The notes under the pieces are model-generated. The model did not search any database. It was given only the letters and a program-made list of their open reading frames with translations, and was not told the DNA's origin. Made by a program: the position numbers and the translations under genes. A stretch of DNA of 64,000 nt, from contig JANQMA010000042.1 of NCBI GenBank assembly GCA_028280285.1, positions 3,572 through 67,571 on the forward strand. The letters run 5' to 3'. Below, piece after piece: positions 970 to 49,099 of the stretch. This stretch comes from Candidatus Omnitrophota bacterium. GTDB taxonomy: Bacteria; Omnitrophota; Gorgyraeia; Zapsychrales; Zapsychraceae. Each line of letters starts with the position of its first letter. The first letter of the stretch is position 1.

Positions 970-977
970 GCTTCTGC

Positions 978-1367: not shown

Positions 1368-1371
1368 AATA

Positions 1372-1428
1372 GGTTTTAGGGGTTAGGTTTTAGTGGACTA
1401 ACACCCAACACCTAGCACCTAACACCTC
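1372..1428. repeat. Intergenic hairpin built from tandem GGTGTTAGG-like units
   Basis: ggttttaggggttaggttttagtgg / cacccaacacctagcacctaacacc. Confidence 0.5.
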
Positions 1429-1430
1429 TT

Positions 1431-2129
1431 ATGAACAACACACCTCACATTTCTGTCATCATTCCCGTTCATAATGAAGAAAAATCACTGCCGCAGGTCA
1501 TTAGTGATCTTCCCCGCGATATTATCAGTGAAATCATTGTTGTCGATAATGCCAGTACGGATAATACACACACCGTAGCTAAAAAGGCAGGGTGTCGTGT
1601 TATTTTTGAATCGCAAAAAGGCTATGGCAAGGCTTGCCTAGCGGGCATTGCGTGTCTAAACCCTAAAACAGATATCGTTGTTTTTGTCGATGGCGACTAC
1701 AGTGATCACCCGGATGAAATGCCGCGTTTGATTAATCCGATTGTAGAAGGACATTATGACTTTGTGATCGGTTCGCGTATTATGGGTGAGAGGGAAAAAG
1801 GGGCTATGGCACCGCAGGCTTATTTCGGCAATAAATTAGCCTGCTTTCTGATTAAATTATTTTGGGATATTCAGTATACGGATCTAGGGCCTTTTCGCGC
1901 TATTACACGCAAAGCGTTAGATGATCTGATCATGACAGATGAAGATTTTGGCTGGACGATTGAAATGCAAATCAAAGCTATTCGCGCCGGTCTGCGTGTT
2001 AAAGAAATCCCTGTCGCTTACCGCAGGCGTATCGGTCAGTCGAAAATTTCCGGAACATTGGTAGGCACTGTCTTGGCCGGGGGAAAGATACTTTGGACGA
2101 TATTTAAATATAAATTTTTAAAAAAGTGA
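1431..2129 (+). CDS. Family-2 glycosyltransferase (polyprenyl-phosphate sugar synthase / DPM-synthase-like)
   Basis: N-terminal ISVIIPVHNEE, a DGD motif (VDGDYSD), and ~230 aa length typical of GtrB/ArnC-like enzymes. Confidence 0.7.
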   Translation: MNNTPHISVIIPVHNEEKSLPQVISDLPRDIISEIIVVDNASTDNTHTVAKKAGCRVIFESQKGYGKACLAGIACLNPKTDIVVFVDGDYSDHPDEMPRLINPIVEGHYDFVIGSRIMGEREKGAMAPQAYFGNKLACFLIKLFWDIQYTDLGPFRAITRKALDDLIMTDEDFGWTIEMQIKAIRAGLRVKEIPVAYRRRIGQSKISGTLVGTVLAGGKILWTIFKYKFLKK

Positions 2130-2184
2130 TCTGTGGCCTGTGGTCAGTGGTCATTGATCACAGACCACAGAACACGGACCACAT
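2128..2184. repeat. Intergenic hairpin built from GTGGTC/GTGTTC units
   Basis: ctgtggcctgtggtcagtggtc - attgat - cacagaccacagaacacggaccac. Confidence 0.55.
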
Positions 2185-2189
2185 AAACT

Positions 2190-3731
2190 ATGTCTATTAA
2201 TAAGTTGCTTATCACCATAGGTTCGGTTTGTGCTTTGCTTTATGTCATGATCACCTGGATGTCTTTTGGTCTGCCGCTTGAGGTTTGTCACTTCCTCAAT
2301 ACTTTAACCTTTAACCTTTCATCTGAAACCTTTCTAGAATTACAAAACGGTTTTCATTATGACAATCCCAACAATGATATGCCGACCGGGATTTATCTTT
2401 TTATCTTCTTTATTATTTTTGTTCTTGTCTTTTATGCCTTTAAAAAAGTAGAGCATGCGGCCTTTAACCAAAAAACGCTTTTGATTATTATTGTTTTTTC
2501 CATATTATTCAGGCTGCTTTCGTTCTGGGGGACGATGATTCATGAAAATGATATCTATCGCTATATGTGGGATGGAAAGACGGCGTTAGCCGGCATCAAT
2601 CCTTTTAAGTATGCTCCGTCGGATCTTTTTCTTTATGATAATGATATTGATTATGATTATTATGATGCGACGCACGATGTAACACTTAAGTTTACAAATT
2701 GGGACGAAAGAAGCAAGGCCGAGTTAGGTCAGCTGCTTGTCCTGCGTGATCAAGACCAAACGCTTTACAATCGTATCGGTCATTGGCAGGTGCCGACCAT
2801 TTATCCGCCGGTGGCCCAGATCCTATTTGCCGTGCCGATGCTCGCTGCGCCGGGTTCGGATATTGTGATGCGGGCCTTTTTTATGTTATTTGACATCGGT
2901 GTTATTTTTCTTATTATTGCCTTACTTAAAACGTTCGATTGTAATCCACTGTGGGTTATTCTCTACGGATGGATGCCGCTTGTTGTGATTCAGTTGACCC
3001 ATTCCGGGCATTATGATGCGATTGTTATTTTTCTGATGATGTTGAGCCTTTATTTATATATTAAGGGAAGAGAAAACATGGCGTGTATGGTTTTAGCACT
3101 GGCAACGTTAAGTAAGTTTTTCCCGGCGGTGTTATTTTTGTTTATGTTTCGCAAGGACTTTATCCGTAAAGGTATTTTGTTTACGGCGGTCATTGCTTTA
3201 TTTTATATTCCGTTTTTTCTTTGGGGGAGTACGGGCATTGCAGGAGTGTTTGAAGGGTTTATGACTTATAACCGTGATTGGTCGTATCATGCGAGCATTT
3301 TTGATATTGTCTATTATACGCTTGAGGTGATATCAACCGATTGGGTTAAAGATTTATATCCGGCGAAAGTCATTGTGGGGCTAATGTATCTTGGTGTAAT
3401 TGCTTTTTTATTTTTTAAACAAAACCATAGGTCACATGCCCTAAGCCTTATTCAAAACTGTTTTTTTGCAATAGCGACGCTTTTTATTTTGAACCCAGTA
3501 GCTGACCCATGGTACTATTGTTGGGTTATGCCGTTTTTATGTATTTTCAGATACCGTTCATGGATTTTACTATCGGGGCTGCTTATGCTAAGCTATCTTA
3601 ATTTTCATACAGATATTCCCTGGACACAGGTGAGGTTTCTTAATCTGAAACTGATTGTGTGGCTGACCTATTTGCCGTTTTTTATTTTACTCGGATCGGA
3701 ATTTTTAAATCGATATTTTAGGACGCGATGA
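2190..3731 (+). CDS. Polytopic membrane protein, putative GT-C fold glycosyltransferase (DUF2029/PMT-like)
   Basis: 513 aa with more than 10 predicted TM helices and a large loop rich in D/Y/W. It directly follows the DPM-synthase-like GT2, the same arrangement as ArnC/ArnT. Confidence 0.4.
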   Translation: MSINKLLITIGSVCALLYVMITWMSFGLPLEVCHFLNTLTFNLSSETFLELQNGFHYDNPNNDMPTGIYLFIFFIIFVLVFYAFKKVEHAAFNQKTLLIIIVFSILFRLLSFWGTMIHENDIYRYMWDGKTALAGINPFKYAPSDLFLYDNDIDYDYYDATHDVTLKFTNWDERSKAELGQLLVLRDQDQTLYNRIGHWQVPTIYPPVAQILFAVPMLAAPGSDIVMRAFFMLFDIGVIFLIIALLKTFDCNPLWVILYGWMPLVVIQLTHSGHYDAIVIFLMMLSLYLYIKGRENMACMVLALATLSKFFPAVLFLFMFRKDFIRKGILFTAVIALFYIPFFLWGSTGIAGVFEGFMTYNRDWSYHASIFDIVYYTLEVISTDWVKDLYPAKVIVGLMYLGVIAFLFFKQNHRSHALSLIQNCFFAIATLFILNPVADPWYYCWVMPFLCIFRYRSWILLSGLLMLSYLNFHTDIPWTQVRFLNLKLIVWLTYLPFFILLGSEFLNRYFRTR

Positions 3732-3863
3732 ATCGCGTCCCTACGATATTTCTATTAATTTTATTAAAAGTGATAGACATATTGTAGGGGCGCCATTTAT
3801 GGCGCCCTAAGTATAGCGAATATTTTATGTTGTTGGATTGTTATAATTAGCGAAAGGGGCAAG

Positions 3864-4622
3864 ATGAAAAAATTAGCATTATTAATCGCAACACTTAGCA
3901 TTATGTTAACTTCCCACACAGTTAATGCGGCATCAGTTGATTACGGCCCGTACGCAGAAATTCTTAAGACCTATGTTGATAAAAAAGGGCTTGTGGATTA
4001 TGTCGGGCTTAAGGAAAACCGCGAGGCCTTTGATGAGGTGATTGCGGCCTTTACTGATACCGATATCGATGCGCTCAGTCCTGTTGAGCAAAAGGCCTTT
4101 TGGATTAATGCTTATAATGCCTACACGCTTAAATTAATTATCGACCGTTATCCACTTAGATTTGGCGGTATATTGACGATTAACTGGGGTCGTCCGTGGA
4201 ATATAGAGATGAAGGTGGCCGGCCGTGATATCACTTTAGGGGAAATTGAACATGAAATTTTGCGTAAATTAGATCCCCCTGATCCGCGTATTCATTTTGC
4301 GATTAATTGCGCTTCTATCGGTTGTCCAATCTTACCGCAAACACCATTTTATGTTGAAACGCTGGATGCACAATTAGATGAAGAAGCGCGTAAATTTATC
4401 AACAATCCTGATAAAGTGCGTTTAGACAGGGAAAAACAAATGTTATATCATTCGGCTATTTTTAAATGGTTTGAAGAGGATTATTTGATCGATGGCCACA
4501 CATTAAAGAGCTACATTGCACAGTATATGACCGAAGCAGATCAAACATATTTGAATAATAATGAAGTGAAACTTAAGGACTTACGTTATGATTGGGGACT
4601 TAATAAACAAGAAAAACAATAA
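3864..4622 (+). CDS. Secreted DUF547-family protein
   Basis: Signal peptide ending VNAAS; contains the conserved DUF547 motif FWINAYNAYTLKLI. Confidence 0.5.
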   Translation: MKKLALLIATLSIMLTSHTVNAASVDYGPYAEILKTYVDKKGLVDYVGLKENREAFDEVIAAFTDTDIDALSPVEQKAFWINAYNAYTLKLIIDRYPLRFGGILTINWGRPWNIEMKVAGRDITLGEIEHEILRKLDPPDPRIHFAINCASIGCPILPQTPFYVETLDAQLDEEARKFINNPDKVRLDREKQMLYHSAIFKWFEEDYLIDGHTLKSYIAQYMTEADQTYLNNNEVKLKDLRYDWGLNKQEKQ

Positions 4623-4623
4623 G

Positions 4624-4693
4624 GGTGGTCTGCGGCCCGTGGTCTGTGATCGATAATTTTTTGATAGACCACAGAGCACAGAGCACAGATCAC
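4624..4693. repeat. Intergenic hairpin built from GTGGTCTGTG units
   Basis: ggtggtctgcggcccgtggtctgtgatc ... gatagaccacagagcacagagcacagatcac. Confidence 0.55.
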
Positions 4694-4713
4694 TTAGATT
4701 AAGGAGTAAGTAT

Positions 4714-5763
4714 ATGCCAACAAAAACTCACAAAGACGTTTCTGAATATTATGGGAAAGTTTTACAAACGAAAAAAGATTTAAAAACAAGTGCGTGCTGT
4801 TCTTTGGAAAAAGTTTCTGACTATGTCCGTGAACCGCTTAAGATGATCGAAGACGAGATCCAGACCAAATTTTACGGATGTGGTGCGCCGATACCGCTTG
4901 TGCTCGACGGGATGAAGGTTCTTGATTTGGGTTGTGGAACAGGTCGTGATTGTTTTGTGATTTCCTATTATGTTGGGGATAAAGGTGAGGTTGTTGGGAT
5001 TGATATGACGGATGAACAATTGGATGTGGCCAATAAATATCTTCCTGTTCAGATGGAGAGATTCGGTTTTAAACGGCCGAATGTCCGGTTTATCAAAGGT
5101 TATATCGAAGATTTAAAGTCGCTTGATCTGCCGGATAATTATTTTGATGTTGTTGTATCCAACTGTGTTGTTAATTTGTCACCCGATAAAGAATCTGTTT
5201 TAAGTGAGGTATTTCGTGTTCTTAAAGAAGGGGGTGAGTTCTTTTTCTCCGACGTCTATGTGGACCGCCGTTTGCCGGATTGGTGCAAGGAGGCCCCTAT
5301 TCTTTTAGGGGAGTGTTTGGGTGGAGCGTTTTACTGGAAAGATTTTGAGCGCCAGGCAAGCAAGACGGGTTTTCATGATCCGCGTGTTTATGCTTGCTCT
5401 AACATAGATTTATTAGATCAGGAGACGATCGATAAGGTGGGATTTGCTCATTTTAATTCCATTACTTATCGTTTATTCAAGCTCGCACAGTTGGAAGATG
5501 CGTGTGAAGATTATGGGCAGGTTGCCTATTATAAAGGAACGATTGAGCATAGCCCGCACAAATTTGTCTTGGATAACCATCATATATTTGAAAAAGACAA
5601 GCCTATGCTTGTTTGTGCGAATACAGCGGCGATGCTGCAGGACACGCGTTTGACCAAGCATTTTGTGATTAAGGGTGATACTTCAGTTCATTATGGGATT
5701 TTTGCAGGCTGTGGAGAGTTGCCGCCGGCTGATGATGATAAGCCGATTGGAGGATGTTGTTAA
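4714..5763 (+). CDS. arsM: Arsenite S-adenosylmethionine methyltransferase-like (ArsM/AS3MT family)
   Basis: SAM-binding motif VLDLGCGTGRDCF. Family-typical cysteines are present: SACCS, FYGCGAP, NCVVNLS and GECLGGA. The C-terminus ends in Cys-rich GGCC. Confidence 0.65.
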   Translation: MPTKTHKDVSEYYGKVLQTKKDLKTSACCSLEKVSDYVREPLKMIEDEIQTKFYGCGAPIPLVLDGMKVLDLGCGTGRDCFVISYYVGDKGEVVGIDMTDEQLDVANKYLPVQMERFGFKRPNVRFIKGYIEDLKSLDLPDNYFDVVVSNCVVNLSPDKESVLSEVFRVLKEGGEFFFSDVYVDRRLPDWCKEAPILLGECLGGAFYWKDFERQASKTGFHDPRVYACSNIDLLDQETIDKVGFAHFNSITYRLFKLAQLEDACEDYGQVAYYKGTIEHSPHKFVLDNHHIFEKDKPMLVCANTAAMLQDTRLTKHFVIKGDTSVHYGIFAGCGELPPADDDKPIGGCC

Positions 5764-5766
5764 ATC

Positions 5767-5853
5767 GGTGTTCAGTGTTCGGAGTTCAGTGTTCGTTTAT
5801 GATTGAACACAGAACACCAGGTGGTTCGTTACTCAGCTAGAACACCGAACACG
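5767..5853. repeat. Intergenic compound hairpin built from GTGTTCAGTGTTC units
   Basis: gtgttcagtgttcggagttcagtgttcg - tttatgat - tgaacacagaacacc ... gaacaccgaacacg. Confidence 0.6.
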
Positions 5854-5892
5854 CGATGTACTTTATCTGGGTAATTTGCTATAATCCCCTCC

Positions 5893-6531
5893 ATGCTTTC
5901 GATCATCATCCCGATTTATAACGAAGCAAAGATTTTAGTTGAAAAACGTGATTACTACCTCAGTCTTAAAAATAAGGCTGAGGTTCTTTTTGTTGATGGG
6001 GGCAGTACCGATGATTCGGCTGTGATCGCAGCGGAATATGGTAAGGTTATTGCTTCCCCACAGGGACGGGCTGTTCAAAAAAACCGGGGCGTTGTCGAGG
6101 CACCGGGCGATATGTTTTTGTTTCTTCATGTCGACTCATTTATTAGCGATGAAGCCCTTAAGCGGCTTAAAGGATTAAACGGGACTCATGCCGGCTGTTT
6201 GACAATGGCGATTGAAGATAGGCGACTTATTTTCCGCTTATATGAAAGGGTGGTTAATAACCGTGCTATTAAAAAAGGTTTGGTTGATGGGGATTTGGGG
6301 TTATTTGTTACACGTGCTATCTTTAATCAACTCAATGGATTTAAAGAATTAACGATTATGGATGACATTGAATTTTCCGAGCGTTTAAGAAAAATATGTA
6401 CTTTATCGGTTTTGCCCGAGAAAATCTATGTGTCATCGCGCAGGTGGGATGAGCATGGATTTATTTCGACCTTTTGGCGCTACACGCTTGCCTATATTCA
6501 ACATTATACGGGGTGGAGGATATTTAAATAG
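5893..6531 (+). CDS. Small family-2 glycosyltransferase, rSAM/selenodomain-associated 'transferase 2' type (arsenosugar-cluster GT-like)
   Basis: MLSIIIPIYNE and DGGSTDDS motifs; ~210 aa. It sits between the ArsM-like gene and a DUF2064 gene, the synteny described for TIGR04283/TIGR04282 pairs. Confidence 0.5.
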   Translation: MLSIIIPIYNEAKILVEKRDYYLSLKNKAEVLFVDGGSTDDSAVIAAEYGKVIASPQGRAVQKNRGVVEAPGDMFLFLHVDSFISDEALKRLKGLNGTHAGCLTMAIEDRRLIFRLYERVVNNRAIKKGLVDGDLGLFVTRAIFNQLNGFKELTIMDDIEFSERLRKICTLSVLPEKIYVSSRRWDEHGFISTFWRYTLAYIQHYTGWRIFK

Positions 6532-6594
6532 TGTTCGGTGTTCCGTGTTCGGTGTTCAGTCATAAACGAACACTGAACTCTGAACACAGAACAC
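6531..6594. repeat. Intergenic hairpin built from GTGTTCGGTGTTC units
   Basis: gtgttcggtgttccgtgttcggtgttcagtc - ataaa - cgaacactgaactctgaacacagaacac. Confidence 0.6.
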
Positions 6595-6609
6595 TATTAT
6601 AGACTAATT

Positions 6610-7221
6610 ATGAACAATAGTGCCCTAGTCATATTTGCCCGCGAACCAAAGCTGGGCAAGGTCAAGACACGATTGGCCAGAGATGTGGGTGAGGCCGAGG
6701 CCTTGCGTTTATATAAATCTTTTGTCCGTCAGACATTGAAGCTTGCGTCTTCACTCAAAAATCTTGACCGCTATATCTATTATGCCGGCTCCAATGCCTC
6801 CATGCCGTTTTTAAGGCAGTTTAAAAACAGATTTATATTAAAGCAGCAAAGGGGTGGCAATTTGGGCACGCGTATGTATAATGCGTTTGACCATTTATTT
6901 AAGGCAGGGTATCAGAAAGTTATTATTATTGGCACTGATTGTTTGGAAATCACAAAAAAAGACATTCAAACTGCTTATAAAAGATTAGATCGCGCGGATT
7001 ATGTCTTAGGGCCTACTTATGATGGAGGGTATTATTTGATAGGCGCTAAGTTAGCCCACAGGAGTGTGTTTCAAGGTATTACTTGGGGAACAAAAACGGT
7101 GTTTAATCAAACAAAGGCAAAGATTGTAAGGTGTGGGAAGTCATTAAAGGTGATACCCAAAAAGAGCGATATCGATTATTTAGCGGATTTACAGAGATTT
7201 TATAGACAAAAAAAGTTATGA
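6610..7221 (+). CDS. DUF2064 nucleotidyl/glycosyl-transferase-like protein (rSAM/selenodomain-associated 'transferase 1' type)
   Basis: N-terminal LVIFAREPKLGKVKTRLA, IIIGTDCLEI and GPTYDGGYYLIG motifs characteristic of DUF2064/CofC-like proteins. Confidence 0.6.
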   Translation: MNNSALVIFAREPKLGKVKTRLARDVGEAEALRLYKSFVRQTLKLASSLKNLDRYIYYAGSNASMPFLRQFKNRFILKQQRGGNLGTRMYNAFDHLFKAGYQKVIIIGTDCLEITKKDIQTAYKRLDRADYVLGPTYDGGYYLIGAKLAHRSVFQGITWGTKTVFNQTKAKIVRCGKSLKVIPKKSDIDYLADLQRFYRQKKL

Positions 7222-7238
7222 TGGCGGTATAATTTTCT

Positions 7239-8027
7239 ATGAATATTGTGCAAAAACAATATGCTTTCTGGCCAAGTGTCGTTCGGATTATCGCGACGTT
7301 TTTGATATTTTATTTCCATTTCGGAGGGTTAACTGGTGCATATCCCGTGACTATGCTAGACCGCTTTGCCATTTTACTGTTTTTATTGATATCTGGGTTT
7401 TTTGCTTATCCGCCACATGGCAATGAACTTAGATGGCTTGAACGCAGGTTTAAACACATTCTTTTTCCTTACTGGCCTATCGTGCTGACGGCCATTATTA
7501 CAAATCATGTTATTAACTATAAAGATAGTACTTTGCTGCATGATGTATTAGTGTTTTTCGGATTCAGCCTGTTTTTAGAAAATCCAATCTACATTATTTC
7601 CTGGTTTATCACCCTCATTTTATTTTTCTATCTCAATCTATTTCTTTTTCGTCTAATTAAAAACAAATTAGTAAAAACAATATTTTGGGTCTTAAGCTTT
7701 TATTTGTTCTATGCTTATTTTAAGGTTTCTGCATTTTATTATGTTAGCTTTTATTTGGGTTATTTTTTGCGTTCACGTAATTTTTTAATCAACGAGCCTT
7801 ATTTAAATACAGCTGTGATGAAAAACGTGAATAATCTAATCTTTAAGATTCAGAGTTATTGCTATGTATTTTTCCTGTTGCACGGTGCGATTATTTTATT
7901 TCATGTAAAGGTCCTTCAATGGAGTAATCCAGTTATGTTTGTTAGTGCTTTCTTGAGTTCAGGAGGGCTAACATATATTTATAAACAAATCGTTGACCGG
8001 ACAATCATGCGGATAAAGATTGGATAG
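7239..8027 (+). CDS. Integral membrane protein, possibly a short Acyltransferase-3 family member
   Basis: Highly hydrophobic 262-aa ORF with 7-8 TM helices and no recognisable catalytic motif. Confidence 0.3.
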   Translation: MNIVQKQYAFWPSVVRIIATFLIFYFHFGGLTGAYPVTMLDRFAILLFLLISGFFAYPPHGNELRWLERRFKHILFPYWPIVLTAIITNHVINYKDSTLLHDVLVFFGFSLFLENPIYIISWFITLILFFYLNLFLFRLIKNKLVKTIFWVLSFYLFYAYFKVSAFYYVSFYLGYFLRSRNFLINEPYLNTAVMKNVNNLIFKIQSYCYVFFLLHGAIILFHVKVLQWSNPVMFVSAFLSSGGLTYIYKQIVDRTIMRIKIG

Positions 8028-8030
8028 TTT

Positions 8031-9005
8031 ATGCGTGTCCTTCATATTTACACTGAAAACGGTAAAAATTTACTAGAACGTACAGTACAAAATCTCGTTA
8101 AGGGGCTTGATTTTAATGGGGTTGAATCCCAAGTGTGTTGTCTAGATGCATCGTCTGATTTTTCTTCCATTTTAAAAGCATCAAAAGCATCTGTTATTCA
8201 CCTGCACTCTGGAGCAACGTTTAAACAATGCTTGCTGCCAGCCAAGCTTTCTGGTCGTAAGATTATTGTGACAGCCCATCAAGCTAATCAGTCCATTCCT
8301 TATAGTAATCAACATTGGCTTTATAAAAAGGTTGCCAGCTCTGATTTTGTCAATGAAGAGGTCTTTAGTTCTAAAGCGGAGGTGATTTATGATGGGATTG
8401 ACTTAGAAGATTTTGATGCGCAGGCGCGGACAGTTGATGGCGATACGCTTCGCCAAACATATGGAATTGATAAGAATGTTTTCATTATCGGGGCTATCGG
8501 GCCTTTAATTTTGGAAAATGATTATGAAAGTTTGTTTAAAGCTTTGCGTAATGCTGTAGCGAAAGAGATGAATGCGATTGTCCTTATTTCCGGTGAAGGC
8601 CCACTGCGTGCGGATTTGCTTAAAAGTGCAGAAGCTTTGAATATAGCAGATAGAGTGAAGATCATTAACGCAACAGATTATGTGTCTTTGTTTTGTTTGT
8701 TTGATGCCTATGTGGTATCTTCTTTTACAGAAGGTTACTTAAGTAGTATTTTAGGTGCGATGGCAGCGTCTAAGCCTGTGATTGCAACCAAAATCGGTGC
8801 CAATCCTGAGATGGTTGTGCAGGGTAAGACAGGGTTTTTGGTGCCTTGCGGATTTCCGGAGAGGATCGATAATGTGATTATGCGCTGGAGGGCGAATCCG
8901 CAGTTGGCTAAGGATATTGGTTCAGCAGGACGTCAACATGTGGAGGAAAAATTTAGCCTTCCCGTGATGGGAAAAAAGTATAAAGAGTTCTATGGGAAGT
9001 TATAA
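8031..9005 (+). CDS. Family-4 glycosyltransferase (GT-B)
   Basis: C-terminal GT4 signature: EGYLSSILGAMAASKPVIATKIGANPEMV...GFLV. Confidence 0.6.
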   Translation: MRVLHIYTENGKNLLERTVQNLVKGLDFNGVESQVCCLDASSDFSSILKASKASVIHLHSGATFKQCLLPAKLSGRKIIVTAHQANQSIPYSNQHWLYKKVASSDFVNEEVFSSKAEVIYDGIDLEDFDAQARTVDGDTLRQTYGIDKNVFIIGAIGPLILENDYESLFKALRNAVAKEMNAIVLISGEGPLRADLLKSAEALNIADRVKIINATDYVSLFCLFDAYVVSSFTEGYLSSILGAMAASKPVIATKIGANPEMVVQGKTGFLVPCGFPERIDNVIMRWRANPQLAKDIGSAGRQHVEEKFSLPVMGKKYKEFYGKL

Positions 9006-9015
9006 AGGAGAATAT

Positions 9016-9372
9016 ATGGACATTTCAATCAATATTGAACATCGCCCTTGGGGATTTTATATTAAACTTTTTCAAGAGTCGGGTGTGTGGGTTAAGCGTG
9101 TAGAGGTCAAGCCTGGCTGCCGGTTAAGTTTGCAAAAACATGAACACCGTTCAGAAAAGTGGAATATTGTCACCGGAATCGGATTAATCAATCTTGATGA
9201 TCAAGAAATCAAAATAGGCCCTGGTTCGGTTATTGACATACCACTTGGGGCTGTGCATCGTATAGCTAATACCGGGGATGCGCCTCTTGTTTTTATTGAA
9301 GTGGCCTGCGGAGATAACTTGACCGAAGAAGATATTATTCGTATTGAGGATGACTATAAGAGGGATGCTTAA
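9016..9372 (+). CDS. Cupin-domain protein (mannose-6-phosphate isomerase type II C-terminal-like)
   Basis: Strong SD (aaggag) 8 nt upstream of the ATG at 9016. Cupin motifs GCRLSLQKHEHRSEKW and GAVHRIAN. Confidence 0.5.
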   Translation: MDISINIEHRPWGFYIKLFQESGVWVKRVEVKPGCRLSLQKHEHRSEKWNIVTGIGLINLDDQEIKIGPGSVIDIPLGAVHRIANTGDAPLVFIEVACGDNLTEEDIIRIEDDYKRDA

Positions 9373-10315
9373 AAATTTCCTAATTACAGGCGGCGCAGGT
9401 TTTATTGGTTCTCATTTTATCCGGCATCTTTTTCGTAACTATCCTTCCTATCAAATCAACAATCTCGATATTCTTAATTATGCTTCTAATCTTCACTTTT
9501 TAGAAGAAGCTGCCTTATCTGATCGGTACCGGTTTGTAAAAGAGGATGTTTGCAAAACACATAACTATTATTCTTTACTAGGAGAAGTTGATTGTATTGT
9601 GCACTTTGCCGCCCAGACACATGTTGACCGTTCGTTTAATGTGGTCGATGAGTTTATCCACGACAATATTGAGGGAACAGAGAAGTTGCTGGCGGCGATA
9701 CATAATTTAGAAAATATCAAACGTTTTGTGTATATTTCGACTGACGAAGTTTATGGGCCAATCGAACAAGGGTATGTTGATGAAAATGCAGTATTTAATC
9801 CAACTAATCCTTATGCGAAGACAAAGGCGACGGCAGATGCGGCTGTTCAGGAGTTTATAAAGCAGACTAATGTCCCTGCCATCATTATAAGACCGTCAAA
9901 TAATTTTGGTCCTAATCAGCACTTTGAGAAATTCATTCCAACTGTTATCACTAAAGCACTTAATCATTTTAGTGTTCCTGTTTATGGAGATGGGCACTAT
10001 TACCGTGAGTGGATTTATGTGGAAGATTGTGTGCGGGCCATTGATTTAATTATCCATAAAGGGCAGCCGGGGGAAATCTATAATGTAGGATCCAACAATA
10101 TTTGGAGTAATCTTGATTTAGCGAAAAAGATTATTAAGTTATGTGACAGGTCCGAAGGATTAATCGAGTTTGTCAGGGATCGTCCTGTACACGACAGACG
10201 CTATGCAATGGATTGCCGTAAACTTGCTAAACTTGGGTTTGAAATCAAAAGCGACTTTGAATTCTGCCTGCTGCGGACAATTGATTATTATTTGGATAAG
10301 ATCAGCAGGGGGTAG
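9344..10315 (+). CDS. NAD-dependent sugar nucleotide 4,6-dehydratase/epimerase (dTDP-glucose 4,6-dehydratase-like)
   Basis: Rossmann motif TGGAGFIGSH, STDEVYG and PYAKTKA (YxxxK). The start could be the internal Met at 9365. Confidence 0.6.
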   Translation: MRMTIRGMLKNFLITGGAGFIGSHFIRHLFRNYPSYQINNLDILNYASNLHFLEEAALSDRYRFVKEDVCKTHNYYSLLGEVDCIVHFAAQTHVDRSFNVVDEFIHDNIEGTEKLLAAIHNLENIKRFVYISTDEVYGPIEQGYVDENAVFNPTNPYAKTKATADAAVQEFIKQTNVPAIIIRPSNNFGPNQHFEKFIPTVITKALNHFSVPVYGDGHYYREWIYVEDCVRAIDLIIHKGQPGEIYNVGSNNIWSNLDLAKKIIKLCDRSEGLIEFVRDRPVHDRRYAMDCRKLAKLGFEIKSDFEFCLLRTIDYYLDKISRG

Positions 10316-10321
10316 TATCTT

Positions 10322-11686
10322 TTACTGCTTGCGCAAGTGCGACGGGAGGATATTTAGCTCTTTGCGGTATTTGCTTACGGTGCGGCGGGCAACTTTCATT
10401 TTTCTTTTCTCTAATATCTCTAAAATTTCTTGATCAGAAAAAGGTTGTTGTTTATTTTCCTCTTGGACAATCATACGCAGTTCTTCTTTAACGCTGCGGT
10501 TTGATATACTTTGATGGTTTCCATTTTTGGATACAGCTTGTGAAAAGAAATATTTAAGAGGAAATATGCCTTGAGGGGAATCCACGTATTTATTGCAAAT
10601 TGCGCGTGAAACTGTAGATTCATTGCGTCCTATTGTTCGGGCAATGTCGGCCAAGACCATTGGTTTAAGCGCGCTATAGCCTTCTTTAAAAAATTCCTGT
10701 TGATTGTTAACAATATAATCAGCGATCTCTTTAATGGTACTTTGTCTTTGTTCAATGCTTTTAATAAAGAGAAGGGCGCTTTTGATTTTGTCTTTGATGA
10801 ACTGCGTTTCTTCTGTGGTGCTGTTTGGCCGGTTGAGCATATTTTTATAGGCGGCGCTTACACGCAGCTGTGGGATGTACTCATTGGTGACGGTGGCCAC
10901 AAAATGATCATCCTGCTCAGTAATGATGATATCCGGTTTAATATAAAGATTGGCCGGTACTTCACTGAATTTTCTAGCCGGTTTTGGTTCCAGGGTCGCG
11001 ATTTCTTTAGCGTAAAGTCTGACATCCTCAGGACTGATTTTTAGTTTGCGTGCAATCGTATCAAACCTTTTCATGGCAAGGTCATCCAGATGGTCACGAA
11101 TGATAGATTGTATCATCTCACTATGTCCGTTAAAACGAAAGGGGATTTGTGCCAAAAGGCATTCTCTTAAATGGCGTGCCCCGATGCCCACAGGATCAAA
11201 AGTTTGAATTTGTTTCAGGATATTTTCCAGTTTATCGATATCAGCGATATTTAGCTCTTTTGCGATCTGTTGCATATTGCCCTCAAAGTAGCCGTCATTA
11301 TTGATGTAACTGATCAACAATTCCCCGATAGCAATATCCTGTGGATTATTCATTTCCACACGTAGTTGTTTAAGAAGATGTTCCTCAATGCCGATTGGTT
11401 TGGCAATGGGTTTTTCATCAGCGGTGTCATCATCACTGAAAAATGTGTCATTGACCGGTGTGATTGAATTTTGCTCGAAATTCTTTTTATTGTGGATGAT
11501 ATCGTTAATATAGCGGCTCAGTGTGGCTTCAACGTCCTCGGATTCAAGGACTGGGTTGGACTCCATTTCTGCCTCAATGGCTGTGCCCAGTTCAGCGATA
11601 GGTAGTTGCAGAACCTCGATTGATTGCTTCATCACAGGGGCAAAAATCTGCTTTTGGACTTGTTTTGTATTTTGTCTTAATTTCAT
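10322..11686 (-). CDS. rpoN: RNA polymerase sigma-54 factor
   Basis: Region I MKLRQ...QKQ...LQL. C-terminal HTH and RpoN box ARRTVSKYRKEL. 454 aa. Confidence 0.85.
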   Translation of the reverse strand: MKLRQNTKQVQKQIFAPVMKQSIEVLQLPIAELGTAIEAEMESNPVLESEDVEATLSRYINDIIHNKKNFEQNSITPVNDTFFSDDDTADEKPIAKPIGIEEHLLKQLRVEMNNPQDIAIGELLISYINNDGYFEGNMQQIAKELNIADIDKLENILKQIQTFDPVGIGARHLRECLLAQIPFRFNGHSEMIQSIIRDHLDDLAMKRFDTIARKLKISPEDVRLYAKEIATLEPKPARKFSEVPANLYIKPDIIITEQDDHFVATVTNEYIPQLRVSAAYKNMLNRPNSTTEETQFIKDKIKSALLFIKSIEQRQSTIKEIADYIVNNQQEFFKEGYSALKPMVLADIARTIGRNESTVSRAICNKYVDSPQGIFPLKYFFSQAVSKNGNHQSISNRSVKEELRMIVQEENKQQPFSDQEILEILEKRKMKVARRTVSKYRKELNILPSHLRKQ

Positions 11687-11916
11687 AGCTCGCAGCCTTG
11701 AATTTATTTATGCAAGAAGTATACCACATTTTGATAGGGGGGCAAATTTTTTTCAGTCAGGCTGTAACTTACTAATATATATGTAAATATAAGAATTATT
11801 TTTTAGATGAATTCATTTCGTTCATAAAATAGCTTGCGATCGGCACTGTTTATTAAAATAGACATTGTTCTAACTTGTTGCTATAATGCCTTTTCCAGGA
11901 ATGTCCGGGTATGTCC

Positions 11917-11934
11917 TGGACACAGATGTTTAAT
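11917..11934. promoter_or_regulatory. Perfect 18-bp palindrome TGTTTAATCATTTAAACA, candidate enhancer/UAS
   Basis: Lies about 115 bp upstream of the sigma-54 promoter at 12045, the position expected for an NtrC-type activator site. Confidence 0.35.
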
Positions 11935-12044
11935 CATTTAAACAATCGGAATGTGTGGGTGGGTTAGTTAAGCAGTACGGCACATCATTACAAGTTGTTT
12001 TATACCAGCTATTTATGTATTTAAAAGTGACTATCTGAGGTAGT

Positions 12045-12060
12045 TGGCATGTTATTTGCT
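12045..12060 (+). promoter_or_regulatory. Sigma-54 (-24/-12) promoter
   Basis: TGGCATGTTATTTGCT matches the TGGCAC-N5-TTGCW consensus, with GG and GC spaced exactly 12 nt apart. It precedes the HTH gene and the Wza-Wzz-ATPase-kinase operon. Confidence 0.7.
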
Positions 12061-12130
12061 TATGTTGGAGGTAAGAGATTCGGGGGGAGCCGAACACAAC
12101 AAGGAAGAATATAAACTAAGGAGAATAATA

Positions 12131-12319
12131 GTGAATAAGCGAATGACTATCACAGAAGTGGCTGAGCTTGTCGGGATCAGCCCAAAGACCATTGTCCGTT
12201 GGGAGAAGGTCGGAAAGGTTAAGAAAGCAAAACGCGACTGGAGAGGATGGCGTGTTTATGATGAAAGCGATTTGACCGATATCCGCCAATTCCGCGAGAC
12301 CATTGTTGAAGTAAACTAA
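12131..12319 (+). CDS. Small excisionase/MerR-family HTH DNA-binding protein
   Basis: aaggag SD, then a GTG start at 12131. MTITEVAELVGISPKTIVRWEKVGKV matches the excisionase-family HTH. The 5' part of the longer ORF overlaps the promoter and is unlikely to be coding. Confidence 0.5.
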   Translation: MNKRMTITEVAELVGISPKTIVRWEKVGKVKKAKRDWRGWRVYDESDLTDIRQFRETIVEVN

Positions 12320-12330
12320 CCTTTTTATTT

Positions 12331-13086
12331 GTGGAGTGTAACGAAATGAGATTATTGATGAATAAATATAGTTGCTCTGTCCTGATAGTTGTGTTTGTCC
12401 TATTGTTTTGGACAACATCAGCCGGGGCACAAACGAATTTTGGCGATGTCATCGAAAGCGAAGAGACCTTAAGCGGGCAAGAATTATTACCACAACCAAG
12501 TAAATTATATACACTTGGTATTGATGATGTCATTGCAATAAACGTGTTAAGGCATCCAGAGGTGAGCGGCGAGTATATGGTTAATAATGAAGGTAATATT
12601 CAGTACGAATTCGTTGGAGATCTTTCTATTAAAAATAAAACAAAAAAGGAAGTGAAAGAGATCATTGAGCAGGCTTTGGAAAAATATATTATAGCGCCGG
12701 AGGTGACGGTTAAAATTATAGGGTATAACAGTAAAGTTGTTTATGTGATCGGAGAGGTTGGTCGACCCGGTAAAATATTTATTAGGGGAGATACGATTAC
12801 AATCCGTGAGGCACTTGTGCAGGCAGGGTTACCTACATTAAGTGCAAAGGCATCAAACAGTATGCTTATTACGCCAACGGAAGATGGCAAACCGGTTCAA
12901 ACCAAAGTTAATGTTAAGAAGCTTTTATTTGAAGGGGATTTAAGGGAAAATCTAGTTATGAAGCCCGGCGACACACTTTATGTGCCACCAACAGCGATGG
13001 CCAAGGCTATGCGGGTGATTCAACCAATTACAGCTCCGATTACAAATGCTGGTGGAGCTGCGCGTACGGTGACAACAGGATTTTAA
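12331..13086 (+). CDS. Periplasmic polysaccharide export protein (Wza/EpsE-like, Poly_export + SLBB)
   Basis: Signal peptide. YTLGIDDVIAINV... and VYVIGEVGRPG motifs typical of Wza-family export proteins. Confidence 0.75.
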   Translation: MECNEMRLLMNKYSCSVLIVVFVLLFWTTSAGAQTNFGDVIESEETLSGQELLPQPSKLYTLGIDDVIAINVLRHPEVSGEYMVNNEGNIQYEFVGDLSIKNKTKKEVKEIIEQALEKYIIAPEVTVKIIGYNSKVVYVIGEVGRPGKIFIRGDTITIREALVQAGLPTLSAKASNSMLITPTEDGKPVQTKVNVKKLLFEGDLRENLVMKPGDTLYVPPTAMAKAMRVIQPITAPITNAGGAARTVTTGF

Positions 13087-13088
13087 AT

Positions 13089-13146
13089 TTAGTTGTTTGT
13101 TGTTAGGGGAATTTTTTTCAACAACTAACAACCGACAACAAACAAC
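13089..13146. repeat. Intergenic hairpin built from TGTTGT units
   Basis: agttgtttgttgttagggg ... ctaacaaccgacaacaaacaact. Confidence 0.5.
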
Positions 13147-13167
13147 TAATAAATAAAGGACAAATTA

Positions 13168-14451
13168 ATGAGCGAAACACCAACAATATCACCAATGAAT
13201 TATTTGAAGATTTTCTTTAGACGCAAAGAGATGCTGATCATTCCGGCCATACTTGGTCTTGTGGTGGGAATTTGTACCAGTATGGTTCTTCCTAAAAAAT
13301 ATGTGTCATCTACGGTTTTACTGGTTGAAGATGGAAAGACGGATAATCCTTTATTTGCCCAGATCGCTGTTTCAACAACAATTCAACAGCGTTTGGCAAC
13401 CATTCGTGAATCGATGCTCGGCTGGAATAGTGTGGTTAAGTTAGTTAAACGACTCGGAATGGATAAAGAAATTAAGACACAGAAAGAGTTCGAAAGCCTT
13501 ATTTCCAAAATACGAAGAAATATTATTATTAAATTAAAAAGCAATAATATCATTAATCTGTCCTACGTAGGGGATGAGCCCAAGCAGACACAGTTAGTTG
13601 TTAAAAATATTACCGATATATTTATAGAACGCAACGTAGATATTCAAAATGAAGATACGACGGATGCTGTTGTTTTTATTGAAGAGCAATTAAAGGTTTA
13701 CCGCAGTAAGATTAAATCCTCTGAAATTGCTAAATTAAAAGAAAGTCTTAACACGCTTCTTGTTGATTCAACCGAAGCCCATCCGCGTGTTAAACAATTG
13801 AGAGAATTAATTAAAGCAAAGCAAAATGAGCTAAAAAAAGAAAATCTCGAATATATTGAAACCACACCGACGGATTTTGATAAAGATAATCCTATTATTT
13901 CTGAAATTAAAAAGACATTGGATACGATGGAACAAAAAACAGAAAGCAATGTAAAAAAAGAAGGAATTGATGAGCAAAATCTGTATAAGGTTATGTTGAT
14001 AGATAAGTTAGACAATGCGATGGCGCGTGATGAAAATGTAAACAATAAGATTTATAATATGTTGCTAGAGAGATTGGAGACTGCCAAAATCACACAACGT
14101 TTGCAATCGTCCAAAGAAGGAACGCGCTACACGGTTCTTGATCCGCCACGTGTACCGCTGACTCATTCAAAACCAAATAAAAAGGTCGTGGCTGCTGCCG
14201 GTCTTGCCATTGGACTGGGAATCGGTATTGGATTGATTTTTATCAGTGAATTTTTGGACAAATCCTTTTTGGATGTTGAAGAGGCTAATCACTTTTTTGG
14301 ACAACCTTTGCTTGGAGCGATTTCAAAAATTACAACGGAAGATAATATTAAAAAAGAACGTGAAAAGGCGATATGCCTTTATACGATAACTCTTATAGTC
14401 GGCATCGCTGCCGTCATGATTACAAAGGCTGTTGTTAATTTTCAAGGATAA
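13168..14451 (+). CDS. Polysaccharide chain-length determinant protein (Wzz/GumC-like, PEP-CTERM locus type)
   Basis: N-terminal TM, long coiled-coil periplasmic region, and a C-terminal TM (GLAIGLGIGIGLIFI). Confidence 0.7.
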   Translation: MSETPTISPMNYLKIFFRRKEMLIIPAILGLVVGICTSMVLPKKYVSSTVLLVEDGKTDNPLFAQIAVSTTIQQRLATIRESMLGWNSVVKLVKRLGMDKEIKTQKEFESLISKIRRNIIIKLKSNNIINLSYVGDEPKQTQLVVKNITDIFIERNVDIQNEDTTDAVVFIEEQLKVYRSKIKSSEIAKLKESLNTLLVDSTEAHPRVKQLRELIKAKQNELKKENLEYIETTPTDFDKDNPIISEIKKTLDTMEQKTESNVKKEGIDEQNLYKVMLIDKLDNAMARDENVNNKIYNMLLERLETAKITQRLQSSKEGTRYTVLDPPRVPLTHSKPNKKVVAAAGLAIGLGIGIGLIFISEFLDKSFLDVEEANHFFGQPLLGAISKITTEDNIKKEREKAICLYTITLIVGIAAVMITKAVVNFQG

Positions 14452-14463
14452 GAGGTAGTTAAT

Positions 14464-15330: not shown

Positions 15331-15356
15331 GCTTAAGAAGAAGATAGAGGTTAAAT

Positions 15357-16142: not shown

Positions 16143-16151
16143 AGATTATGT

Positions 16152-17009: not shown

Positions 17010-17094
17010 ATATTAAATTCAAGGGGAGCAGGCAATATTTAAAGATTTAAAATATTATCTGCTCTCTTTTTTTACATAATTTATTAATATTAAT

Positions 17095-20519: not shown

Positions 20520-20548
20520 AAATCGAGTGAATATACTAGGAGATTTTT

Positions 20549-24081: not shown

Positions 24082-24086
24082 AGATT

Positions 24087-28586: not shown

Positions 28587-28587
28587 T

Positions 28588-33359: not shown

Positions 33360-33969
33360 AGAAATACAAAAAAATATCATTCCTCATGATGCAATTATTA
33401 ATAAGAACCATCGACGGAAATTAAATCATCATGGATCAGCGGTATTATGGTTTACAGGATTATCAGGTTCGGGTAAATCTACCATCGCACATAATTTAGA
33501 GTCAGCTTTGTATGAACGTGAAGTAAGAACATATGTTTTGGATGGAGATAATGTGCGTACCGGGCTTAATAAGGGTTTGACTTTTTCTCCCGAGGACCGT
33601 AAAGAAAATATACGCCGTATTGGTGAGGTATCAAAATTATTTATGGATTGTGGAATCTTTTTGCTGACGGCATTCATATCACCCTATAGGGAAGACAGGC
33701 AATTTGTACGGTCCCTGGTTGAGTCAGGAGAGTTTATTGAGATTTATGTTAAGTGTCCAGTTGAGGTGTGCGAAAAACGTGATGTCAAAGGTCTTTATAA
33801 AAAGGCACGTGATGGTGAAATCAAGAATTTTACCGGAATCAGTGCGCCATATGAAGAGCCTGAGTCTGCTGAAATCTTAATCGATTCGGATGCGATGACA
33901 CTTGAAAAAAGTGTGGAAGTGATTATTGAATATCTGGAGCAGAATGGCTACTTGGAAATAAAGGGATAA
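33352..33969 (+). CDS. cysC: Adenylyl-sulfate (APS) kinase
   Basis: P-loop [16 protein letters not shown] and [11 protein letters not shown]. 205 aa. Confidence 0.85.
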
Positions 33970-34032
33970 AGGGATATTGGGTTAAAGGGTTGAGGGAATT
34001 TAAATTCTGTAGCCCTTAAGTCCTATTTTATT

Positions 34033-35148
34033 ATGAATATATTACATTTAAGAAGTAGTGGCGGGATGTTCGGCGCTGAGGGTGTTATTTTAAATCTTTC
34101 GCGTGAACTAAATGAGTTTGGACATAAAAATCATATTGTCTGCCTGCGTAATACCAAAAACCCACACACCGAACTGGTTGATGCGGCACACACCCTGGGT
34201 TTAAATGCTGAGGCTGTAGACTGCAAAGGGCGTATTGATTTTAAGGCGATTAAAGAAATACGTGCGATTATTGATGAGAAAAATATTCAGGTTATTCATT
34301 GTCATGATTATAAAGCAAATATGCACGGCGTTTTGGCGGCACCGGCCAATGTTAAAAAAATAGCGACGAATCATTTATGGACCAGTGAAACAATGCTTCT
34401 ACGGTTATATGAAATCATCGATGGTGTGATGGCCAATAGCTTTCATCGTGTGATCGGGGTATCTGATAAAATTACTATACAAGTAAGGCGGTATTTACTT
34501 GATAAAAAAAGAGCACAGACAATATATAATGGCATTGACCTTGATTACTATAGAAGCGATGGTAAGGCTACAGGAGTGTTGCGTACACAATCGGCCTTGA
34601 CCGATAAGCACTTTGTTTTAGGTGCGGTTGGGCGGTTGTCGGTGCAAAAAGGCTATCCTTATTTATTACAGGCTCTTAAATTATTAAAAGAGGAGTTTCC
34701 TCAATTAAGACTTATTTTTGTGGGTGATGGGGACCAGCGTGAAAAATTACAAGCTGAGGTGAAGCGTCTAGGGCTTGAAAACATGGTTTACTTTGCGGGG
34801 ATACAAAAAAATATGTTGGATGTCTATAGATCGGTTGATGTTTTAACGATGTCATCTATTGCCGAAGGGCTGCCGCTTGTATTGCTTGAGGCCTTGGCTA
34901 TGCGGTTGCCTGTTGTAGCAACAAAAGTTGGTGCTATCGGGAAAGTTATAGATAATCGGGTGACTGGCCTGTTGTGTGAGGCCGCAGATGTAAAGGTCCT
35001 TGCACAACAGATTAGATGTGTTATCCTTGATGAAAATTTACGCCAAACAATCACAGCAAATGGCCGCAAGCTTATGGAAGAAAAGCTGTCCTCAGAGGCC
35101 ATGGCGAGACAATATGAGCAGGTATATAATGAAGTATTGAACAATTAA
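34033..35148 (+). CDS. Family-4 glycosyltransferase
   Basis: MSSIAEGLPLVLLEALAMRLPVVATKVG...GLL. Confidence 0.7.
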   Translation: MNILHLRSSGGMFGAEGVILNLSRELNEFGHKNHIVCLRNTKNPHTELVDAAHTLGLNAEAVDCKGRIDFKAIKEIRAIIDEKNIQVIHCHDYKANMHGVLAAPANVKKIATNHLWTSETMLLRLYEIIDGVMANSFHRVIGVSDKITIQVRRYLLDKKRAQTIYNGIDLDYYRSDGKATGVLRTQSALTDKHFVLGAVGRLSVQKGYPYLLQALKLLKEEFPQLRLIFVGDGDQREKLQAEVKRLGLENMVYFAGIQKNMLDVYRSVDVLTMSSIAEGLPLVLLEALAMRLPVVATKVGAIGKVIDNRVTGLLCEAADVKVLAQQIRCVILDENLRQTITANGRKLMEEKLSSEAMARQYEQVYNEVLNN

Positions 35149-35151
35149 CTT

Positions 35152-35253
35152 GTGTTCAGTGTTCTAGATAGGCAAACCGATGAATGGTGTTCAGTGTTCT
35201 GATAGAGCACTGAACACGAAATTTCTAAATTTGGTAAGAACACAGAACACTAT
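35152..35253. repeat. Intergenic cluster of GTGTTCAGTGTTC / GAACACAGAACAC units (two direct copies plus inverted copies)
   Basis: tgtgttcagtgttc ... ggtgttcagtgttc ... gcactgaacacg ... gaacacagaacac. Confidence 0.6.
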
Positions 35254-35264
35254 TTCTATATATT

Positions 35265-40468: not shown

Positions 40469-40536
40469 GTGACCAAAAGTAGTGGACTTACACGTTAAAA
40501 AGCCAAATAAATATTGTTGATTCAATGCGACAAATG

Positions 40537-49095: not shown

Positions 49096-49099
49096 AGTA

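Follow-up and report, generated by a model that had tools for sequence, protein, structure and literature searches.

Ten intergenic hairpins with arms made of tandem seven-nucleotide units were found in a 64,000-nucleotide stretch of contig JANQMA010000042.1 from a Candidatus Omnitrophota bacterium (the whole stretch is called the window here). They are palindromes of the short tandemly repeated repetitive (STRR) type, that is, palindromes of heptanucleotide simple sequence repeats (SSRs), a class that is known but unexplained, and to my knowledge they are seen here for the first time in a probable Omnitrophota genome. Each of the ten occupies a spacer of a PEP-CTERM/exosortase polysaccharide cluster whose neighbouring genes run in the same direction, close behind the upstream stop codon, and comparison with syntenic relatives identified them as insertions specific to this lineage. 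As to how they arise and what they do, I lean towards spread by duplication, change by slippage and action in the operon mRNA.

Anatomy and abundance of the hairpins

Hairpin strength was expressed as the z-score of the RNA fold relative to dinucleotide shuffles. An earlier note on this DNA had listed inverted repeats in seven spacers between positions 1372 and 35253, and all seven were found to fold strongly (-20.6 to -38.9 kcal/mol, z -3.6 to -7.4). Three more members were added, two of them beyond that range (49158-50012 and 51305-51379) and one an inner hairpin nested in the 35152 element. The features are as follows.

1370-1429, plus strand: hp1, 5' arm (TAGGTTT/TAGGGGT)x3.4 at 1370-1394 and 3' arm (CTAACAC)x4.3 at 1398-1429, between the DUF3568 gene (stop 1365-1367) and GT2 (start 1431); fold of 1368-1430, -22.5 kcal/mol, z -3.6
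2125-2184, plus strand: hp2, 5' arm GTGATCT GTGGCCT GTGGTCA GTGGTCA and 3' arm GATCACA GACCACA GAACACG GACCACA; fold of 2125-2189, -35.3 kcal/mol, z -5.8
4624-4693, plus strand: hp3, 5' arm GTGGTCT GCGGCCC GTGGTCT GTGATCG and 3' arm GACCACA GAGCACA GAGCACA GATCAC; fold of 4623-4695, -31.3 kcal/mol, z -5.3
5767-5853, plus strand: hp4, 5' arm GTGTTCA GTGTTCG GAGTTCA GTGTTCG, loop TTTATGATT and inner 3' arm GAACACA GAACACC, which a ~21-nt interruption separates from the outer 3' arm GAACACC GAACACG; fold of 5764-5856, -36 kcal/mol, z -4.4
6530-6595, plus strand: hp5, four GTGTTCN units, loop GTCATAAAC and four NGAACAC units; fold of 6529-6597, -36.3 kcal/mol, z -7.4
13089-13149, plus strand: hp6, (TTAGTTG TTTGTTG TTAGGGG) ... 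(CAACAAC TAACAAC CGACAAC AAACAAC), between the Poly_export and Wzz/GNVR genes; fold of 13087-13150, -20.6 kcal/mol, z -6.2
35151-35251, plus strand: hp7, outer arms GTGTTCAGTGTTCT (35151-35165) and AGAACACAGAACAC (35237-35251); fold of 35149-35255, -38.9 kcal/mol, z -5.8
35186-35218: inner hairpin of hp7, GTGTTCAGTGTTCT GAT AGAGCACTGAACAC, enclosed by the outer arms
49096-50058, minus strand: hp10, a long hairpin occupying the whole FtsX-to-ABC-ATPase spacer and split by an insertion sequence (IS); outer parts an (AATTAAA)n array opposite a T-rich stretch, inner arms TTGGTCG TTAGTAA TTGGTAA (49158-49187) against TTACCAA units (49271-49285, 49995-50012); reconstructed without the IS, -49.6 kcal/mol, z -4.6
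49286-49994, plus strand: IS1595-family insertion sequence of 709 bp, transposase open reading frame (ORF) at 49328-49975 (PF12762)
51305-51379, minus strand: hp8, on the gene strand (TGTTTAA TGTTTAT AGTTTAA AGTTTAA) ... (CACTAAACATTAAACTTTACACAG), between the minus-strand LolA-like and FtsX permease genes; z -3.0

Tandem Repeats Finder (TRF) returned a period of 7 in every arm. The earlier description of arms with 2-4 tandem units stands, and its unit length of 6-8 nt narrows to exactly seven. TRF counted 17 period-7 arrays in the window against 1.15 in block shuffles, with other periods merely 2-3 fold over shuffles, and 13 of the 17 fall in the ~5% of the window that is intergenic. The sequence GTGTTCNGTGTTC, allowing up to two mismatches, had 26 matches where 2.9 were expected, a count reached by none of 100 shuffles. 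Five of the ten hairpins (hp2-hp5 and hp7) have a common G-T-G-n-T/C-C-n frame with GTGTTCN and GTGRYCN units, in agreement with the proposal that these are a repeat family rather than independent terminators. The remaining units are TAGGKKT (hp1), NNNGTTG (hp6), TGTTTAA (hp8) and TTGGTAA (hp10).

With 2-4 units per arm, the stems reach ~21-28 bp. The seventh position of the unit is usually mismatched between the arms in the window, resulting in 6-bp helices joined by 1x1 internal loops. The two arms of each hairpin align at 76-100% identity, with fold z-scores from -3.0 to -7.4 across the family, and the positions opposed in the arms comprise 160 Watson-Crick pairs, 8 G.T, 7 A.C and 17 others. 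Mirroring of the arms beyond the level of the unit was weak to negative (0.867 in the best register, 0.824 in other registers). Stop codons in all three frames of the 3' arm were considered as a general rule and rejected: arms of TGAACAC-type units have them, and those of hp2 and hp3 do not.

The hexamers GTGTTC/GAACAC occur 42 times in the window, 22 times within hairpins and 20 times outside them, where 19.6 were expected. As the count outside the hairpins matches expectation, the GAACAC at 40548, in a palindrome (40537-40562) that had been linked to the family, is attributed to chance.

Insertion at operon junctions and copying

The hairpins start -2 to +4 nt relative to the upstream stop codon and leave 2-39 nt to the next start. 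The first unit of hp2 includes the TGA stop at 2127-2129, with the next start at 2190; hp3 begins 1 nt past a TAA stop and is followed by AAGGAG and the ATG at 4714; the GTGTTCN units of hp5 overlap the TAG stop at 6529-6531. Between 1 and 7 kb, six of eight consecutive junctions are filled in this way. With the hairpin folded, the effective spacing from stop to start is 6-42 nt. hp8 overlaps a mechanically called TTG start at 51339, and the true start at this junction probably lies further downstream.

Six syntenic relative loci with the gene order aminotransferase, DUF3568, GT2, GT87, (DUF547), methyltransferase, GT2, DUF2064 were compared with the window. The methyltransferase (4714-5763) matches one database entry, on a 73.6-kb contig, at 100% identity; its relatives are 75-83% identical and are labelled Candidatus Omnitrophica/Omnitrophota by their sources. 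In the syntenic loci the corresponding junctions measure 0-10 nt or overlap. The DUF547-to-methyltransferase junction reads 'TAA aggagaaggt ATG' in locus L123 and spans 91 nt in the window (hp3, then AAGGAG); the GT2-to-GT87 junction has 10 nt in L123 and 60 nt in the window; and that between the second GT2 gene (GT2b) and DUF2064 has 6 nt or overlaps in five relatives against 78 nt in the window. The C- and N-termini of the flanking proteins are intact. Given that the relatives' junctions are short or overlapping, the hairpins are clean lineage-specific insertions, and the evidence that they were inserted recently in this lineage is clear.

No heptamer arrays at all were present in the syntenic loci L120-L123. 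L117 and L119 carry arrays at two of the window's junctions, built of other units (TAGCTCA/TGAGCTA and CAGTGRT/ACTGAAY); because these share the junctions and not the units, the junctions appear to be re-used while their sequences turn over. L117 and L118 are identical, and none of the relatives is near enough to reveal polymorphism in 7-nt steps. A separate observation concerns L117, a related Omnitrophota metagenome-assembled genome, in which a TCAGTCA/TCTGATG hairpin (8551-8618) straddles the stop codon of GT87 (8606), placing its 5' arm inside annotated coding sequence.

Two of the hairpins are copies of each other: hp4 (5775-5818) agrees with the reverse strand of hp5 (6538-6587) at 40 of 44 positions, and the match spans the loop (GTTTATGAYT) and the rare variant unit GAGTTCA. 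As inverted copies they flank the GT2b gene. Hairpins of this family are therefore copied and have not merely grown by local slippage, and the pair is further evidence for a family relationship. A pattern specific to the hp4/hp5 loop, GTGTTCGTTTATGAYTGAACAC, had no matches in the metagenome collection.

The arms also have a strict polarity, with the G/T-rich arm on the 5' side in ten of ten window hairpins; because a hairpin is its own reverse complement, this holds on both strands. Hairpins of other units among the matches listed from other genomes (described below, seeded unit excluded) were G/T-first in 14 cases and AC-first in three. The AC-first version of the GTGTTC pattern matched nothing viral, and the entire metagenome collection contained only 26 loci with it, mostly of the units GAACACG and GAACACA; two of these were junctions of neighbouring hairpins. 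The G/T-first pattern matched two viral loci and, in the genome collection, at least 116, numbers that stem from different databases and allow only a lower-bound comparison.

The spacer of hp10 records a second, unrelated event. The IS1595-family element ends in perfect 15-bp terminal inverted repeats, GGCTCTAGACTAGCA, and is flanked by a 7-bp target duplication, TTACCAA (49279-49285 and 49995-50001), having entered exactly one of the heptamer units of hp10. It arrived there later and stands outside the hairpin family. That the duplication and the repeat period are both 7 may be a coincidence; the duplication was considered as a source of the heptamers and discarded, being a single insertion that is incompatible with the diversity of units.

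The heptamer class and its recurrence in other phyla

STRR hairpins have been known since 1990, when Mazel et al. reportedly described the units CCCCAGT, TTGGTCA and CAACAGT, and unit identity is not usually taken as defining for heptamer palindromes. The window hairpins agree with the class in having units of exactly 7 nt, convergent arrays of one unit that form a stem-loop, and an intergenic position near the end of the upstream ORF. In the syntenic loci of relatives the arrays are absent or of other units. Their unit sequences differ from those described (CCCCAGT, TTGGTCA, CAACAGT, GGGAATC, TAACTGA), the hp10 unit TTGGTAA being identical at 6/7 positions to the STRR unit TTGGTCA. According to Mrazek (2007), as related in PMC4679880 and PMC4692102, no class of long SSR is more over-represented in bacteria than heptamers. 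STRR hairpins of 7-bp units lie between hupS and hupL in cyanobacteria, where transcript stability or translational coupling has been proposed and the function is unknown (PMC2670836). Tandem 7-nt units, inverted hairpin arrays, an intercistronic position within operons and many units per genome are common to the cyanobacterial and the window hairpins. The latter differ in phylum (probable Omnitrophota, with sigma-54) and in most of their units, and here, unlike for STRR, the insertion status relative to syntenic relatives and the strict stop-codon adjacency are documented. The tandem-unit arms, which had been called unusual, are a defining feature of the described class in cyanobacteria (PMC2670836) and Xanthomonas (PMC4692102).

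The heptamer arrays of Xanthomonas (GGGAATC) and Nostoc (GGGGAYT) are 89-93% intergenic, lie ~28 nt from the upstream ORF end (Rehm et al. 2015, PMC4692102), form 70-75 convergent inverted pairs per genome, conserve unit positions 1-4 and 6, and are not kept between related species (PMC4692102). Those units are G-tracts with G-quadruplex potential, and the window units are not, save for a weak period-8 GGG array. In this array (33955-33995), ATAAAGGG x4 straddles the APS kinase stop codon, and its five GGG runs have G-quadruplex potential as in the Xanthomonas GGGAATC arrays. The array has only a weak complementary partner, and as a hairpin the G-rich region 33955-34032 was not significant (z -1.35).

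Direct repeats of TAACTGA lie a few nt ahead of start codons in Beggiatoaceae, Cyanobacteria and Bacteroidetes (MacGregor 2015, PMC4679880), with 169 direct sets and one inverted set, and with 7-nt-step indels between Cyanothece strains (PMC4679880). The window arrays resemble them as patchy, cross-phylum heptamers, the 7-nt-step indels being a feature of TAACTGA. The sense-strand ACTGA core of TAACTGA is also the core of the TGAACAC 3' arm (ACTGAAC) in the cross-phylum loci described below, in the same orientation to the downstream start. Unlike TAACTGA, the window has hairpins, and the seventh position (A of TCAGT) is not conserved in it.

The likeness to repetitive extragenic palindromic (REP) sequences and bacterial interspersed mosaic elements (BIMEs) that the earlier note had proposed is partial. 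A REP within ~15 nt of a stop is said to affect translation of the upstream gene, a result credited to Liang, Rudd and Deutscher in 2015. REP/BIME elements of Enterobacteria and Pseudomonas are extragenic imperfect palindromes past stops in operons, transcribed, multi-copy and with effects on mRNA stability (PMC2817692, PMC3733652), and the window hairpins are likewise extragenic and stop-proximal. REPs, however, are single palindromes of 20-40 nt with one or a few conserved sequences, a GTAG/CGTC tag and a link to a REP-associated tyrosine transposase (RAYT), and lack a tandem 7-nt substructure. The window has several unrelated units in place of a conserved 20-40 nt palindrome with a GTAG/CGTC 5' tag, and Pfam detected no RAYT (Y1 transposase) gene among its ORFs.

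A relationship to miniature inverted-repeat transposable elements (MITEs), likewise suggested before, did not survive: the hairpin borders lack target-site duplications, there are no terminal inverted repeats around a conserved body, and the only IS in the window (IS1595 family) has ends, GGCTCTAGACTAGCA, unrelated to the hairpins. Exclusion of CRISPR was correct, since 7-nt units abut one another in inverted arrays, in place of repeats of 24-48 nt set apart by unique spacers. Rfam, to which the earlier note had pointed as a check, gave no matches in the window at gathering thresholds.

A search of a species-representative genome collection for GTGTTCNGTGTTC-N3-33-GAACACNGAACAC returned at least 116 loci, with less than one expected by chance (own arithmetic, assuming uniform composition). 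The listed loci belong to Planctomycetota, Verrucomicrobiota, Kiritimatiellae, Chloroflexota, Bacteroidota, Actinomycetota, Abditibacteriota, Armatimonadota and Desulfobacterales, at GC contents of 29-74%. The matches listed contained 388 period-7 arrays and 134 inverted pairs, some of which have unlike units (AGTGAGG, GGTGGAG, GCGGATA, TGAAACG). By crude ORF calls on the same matches, hairpin edges lay within -6 to +12 nt of a stop in 59 of 114 cases, and an in-frame ATG followed 0-25 nt past the hairpin in 46 of 120. With edges this often near a stop or an ATG, the layout of stop, hairpin and start is not peculiar to the window. A TCAGT/ACTGA core was present in 28 of 164 non-seed arrays among the matches listed, against 1.4% expected, the arrays not being independent of one another; the TAACTGA repeats of Beggiatoaceae have this core too.

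One pair of orthologous loci differed in the centre of a GTGTTCG hairpin. In two Phaeodactylibacter genomes with flanks ~96% identical, the 11-nt centre reads GTTGCGAACCG in L020 (4326-4336) and CGGTTCGCAAC in L079 (2557-2567), the one being the exact reverse complement of the other; such an exact flip shows that the hairpin arms interact at the DNA level.

The Actinomycetota loci include a tight, separate class of 36-nt palindromes, GTGTTCGGTGTTCGGT-nnnn-ACCGAACACCGAACAC, with one per locus (L002, L003, L008, L024, L033, L045, L046, L054, L067, L086, L094, L096, L100, L104, L114 and others). In at least four taxa the palindrome adjoins a homologous flank (72-77% identity), an arrangement that looks closer to a conserved operator than to an SSR hairpin. 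Candidate ORFs neighbouring these palindromes had no Pfam matches.

Proposed mechanism, rival explanations and setting

The account I favour, with moderate confidence, is that these STRR-type palindromes spread by duplication, change by slippage, are transcribed within operon mRNA and fold there with REP-like effects. The elements were inserted into operon junctions that were originally 0-10 nt or overlapping, right after the stop codon and upstream of the ribosome-binding region of the next gene. They spread by duplication, hp5 being an inverted copy of hp4, and slipped-strand mispairing probably lengthens or shortens them 7 nt at a time. Because the hairpins lie inside co-directional gene runs and lack T-tails, they would be transcribed as part of a polycistronic mRNA, in which the RNA may fold into an imperfect stem of 21-28 bp made of 6-bp helices. 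The fold would restore the stop-start spacing given above, and by keeping the stop and the next start close it would explain why large insertions are tolerated in tight operons. The stem might then act in a REP-like manner as a barrier to 3' exonucleases, possibly as a substrate of RNase III, or as a modulator of translational coupling.

Several points weigh against this account. A test for enrichment of G.U wobbles on the sense strand of the arms found none (8 G.T against 7 A.C), and as unit variants are not mirrored between the arms, exact pairing is not visibly under selection. Any function would have to be dispensable, since most relatives have this operon without the elements. Slippage alone cannot yield the hp4/hp5 copy or the strict placement after stops, and the strong arm polarity and the preference for 7 nt are left without explanation.

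One rival explanation is a non-autonomous MITE- or REP-like mobile element, with an enzyme acting in trans (for example a Y1/RAYT-type or other transposase) that would copy the hairpin as single-stranded DNA and place it just past stops, and with RNA effects that would be incidental. The clean insertions into junctions of 0-10 nt, the inverted hp4/hp5 copies (40/44), the lineage-specific proliferation and the flipped centre at the orthologous Phaeodactylibacter locus would all fit, the filling of 6/8 consecutive junctions within 1-7 kb suggests targeting, and a Y1_Tnp gene (PF01797; IS200/IS605 or RAYT-like) is present at 14988-15677 of L120. That locus, however, lacks heptamer hairpins over the 21 kb examined, and the window itself has no Y1/RAYT gene. 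Neither target-site duplications nor conserved termini past the arrays themselves were seen, the GTAG/CGTC tags that are a hallmark of REPs (PMC3733652) are absent, and the metagenome collection yielded nothing for the loop-specific pattern. The 64-kb window alone contains at least five unrelated units, and loops are not conserved among the copies in other genomes. I regard this explanation as unlikely, if worth keeping in mind.

The heptamer period and the arm polarity, which stay unexplained, invite a more general reading that is speculative and somewhat less probable still, in which the hairpins are the footprint of one widespread process (a property of a polymerase, a primase or repair, or a dedicated enzyme) that writes convergent G/T-rich 7-nt units after stops. 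If true, it would account for the recurrence of GTGTTCA (TCAGT core) with the same polarity in Planctomycetota, Verrucomicrobiota, Chloroflexota, Bacteroidota, Actinomycetota and others, as well as for ten hairpins in 64 kb, the constant period of 7 and the rarity of AC-first arrays. Whichever process applies, the cross-phylum unit, the layout of stop, hairpin and start, and the arm polarity are concrete rules for any mechanism, and the window is a compact natural example in which a conserved operon has junctions that are empty in relatives, six of them filled here, plus an inverted-copy pair.

Binding arrays in double-stranded DNA, serving as operators or centromere-like sites with one dimer of a ribbon-helix-helix (RHH) protein per 7-bp heptad, are very unlikely. 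Such 7-bp periodic binding is established for omega (ParB) of pSM19035, which binds WATCACW heptads in direct and inverted orientation and needs four or more units (PMC9499535). The core ATCAC resembles the units GATCACA and GACCACA of hp2 and hp3, and unit positions 1-3 and 5-6 are conserved with 4 and 7 variable, as for a recognition motif. The omega heptads, however, are contiguous over plasmid promoters and are bound as duplex by a protein encoded adjacently, whereas the window arrays are split by loops of 3-83 nt, are intercistronic and do not lie over promoters. TAGGTTT, TGTTTAA, TTGGTAA and GTGTTCN in one genome could not be read by one protein, an identical unit recurs across many phyla in unrelated contexts, and Pfam detected no RHH (omega-type) gene among the window ORFs.

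About as improbable are terminators or attenuators that are factor-independent or lack a U-tract ('I-shaped') and are repetitive by happenstance. Strong stems directly after stop codons are what such elements would have, and ~20% of the hairpins in other phyla lie between convergent genes among the matches listed. As the earlier note had stated, the hairpins are not followed by a T-run (their tails are CTCTTATG, ATAAACT, TTAGATT and similar), and the combination of a GC-rich stem with a U/T-tract that marks an intrinsic terminator is missing. A terminator scan of positions 1-18000 called none of the hairpins, with sigma-70 promoter and terminator scans at chance level, and canonical terminators of GC-stem and T-run are used elsewhere on the contig (17010-17094 and 42574-42697). 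The hairpins sit within conserved operons whose corresponding junctions overlap in relatives, and termination there would silence the downstream biosynthetic genes; and in other phyla divergent and convergent settings were about equal (22 vs 21, crude ORF calls on the matches listed). For annotation, spacers of this kind should be taken as neither terminators nor CRISPR nor REP.

Least probable of all are scars of DNA ends, with telomere- or Chi-like G/T-rich heptamers added or selected at the 3' ends of a break in the dyad centre: this geometry would yield the convergent orientation (G/T-rich strand running 5'-to-3' toward the centre from both sides) and the strong polarity that is identical on both strands, and it would suit arms that are independently heterogeneous arrays in place of mirrored copies, arrays in other phyla that flank unique central stem-loops, and the centre flip at an orthologous locus, but the idea is speculation from geometry alone, an enzyme for it is neither known nor came to light, the same unit across phyla cannot be the Chi site of every lineage, the hp4/hp5 copy includes the loop, and AC-first examples exist (26 loci).

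The window has a GC content of 39% with nearly all genes on the plus strand, and a search for tRNA and tmRNA genes in it found none. Pfam assigned its ORFs to a PEP-CTERM/exosortase polysaccharide cluster with sigma-54 components, including the following.

10322-11686, minus strand: rpoN
39018-39836: EpsH
39836-40468: DUF3485 gene
41746-42573: PEP-CTERM protein gene

At 56508-60187, genes for a TPR protein, a GAF histidine kinase and a sigma-54-dependent response regulator follow one another, a trio that resembles the PrsT/PrsK/PrsR regulators found with PEP-CTERM/exosortase systems. GG-N10-GC spacing is seen in two sigma-54-type promoters, one at 12045-12060 (TGGCATGTTATTTGCT) upstream of the MerR-like/Poly_export genes and one at 40697-40712 (TGGCACGCTTATTGCT) upstream of the sugar transferase at 40786; the palindrome at 40531-40562 may be an activator site for the latter.

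Two further spacers contain other structures. The GT87-to-DUF547 spacer has two related GC-rich, heptamer-free palindromes of 20-24 nt, GGACGCGAT-GA-ATCGCGTCC (3721-3740), which includes the TGA stop of the GT87 gene, and AGGGGCGCCAT-TT-ATGGCGCCCTA (3786-3809). The spacer at 61200-61548 folds at -107 kcal/mol and has no Rfam match; within it, a very stable structure at 61243-61340 has 16-nt arms (TTGGCAGATAGTATTC / GAATACTATCTGCCAA) around further hairpins, upstream of an epimerase gene.

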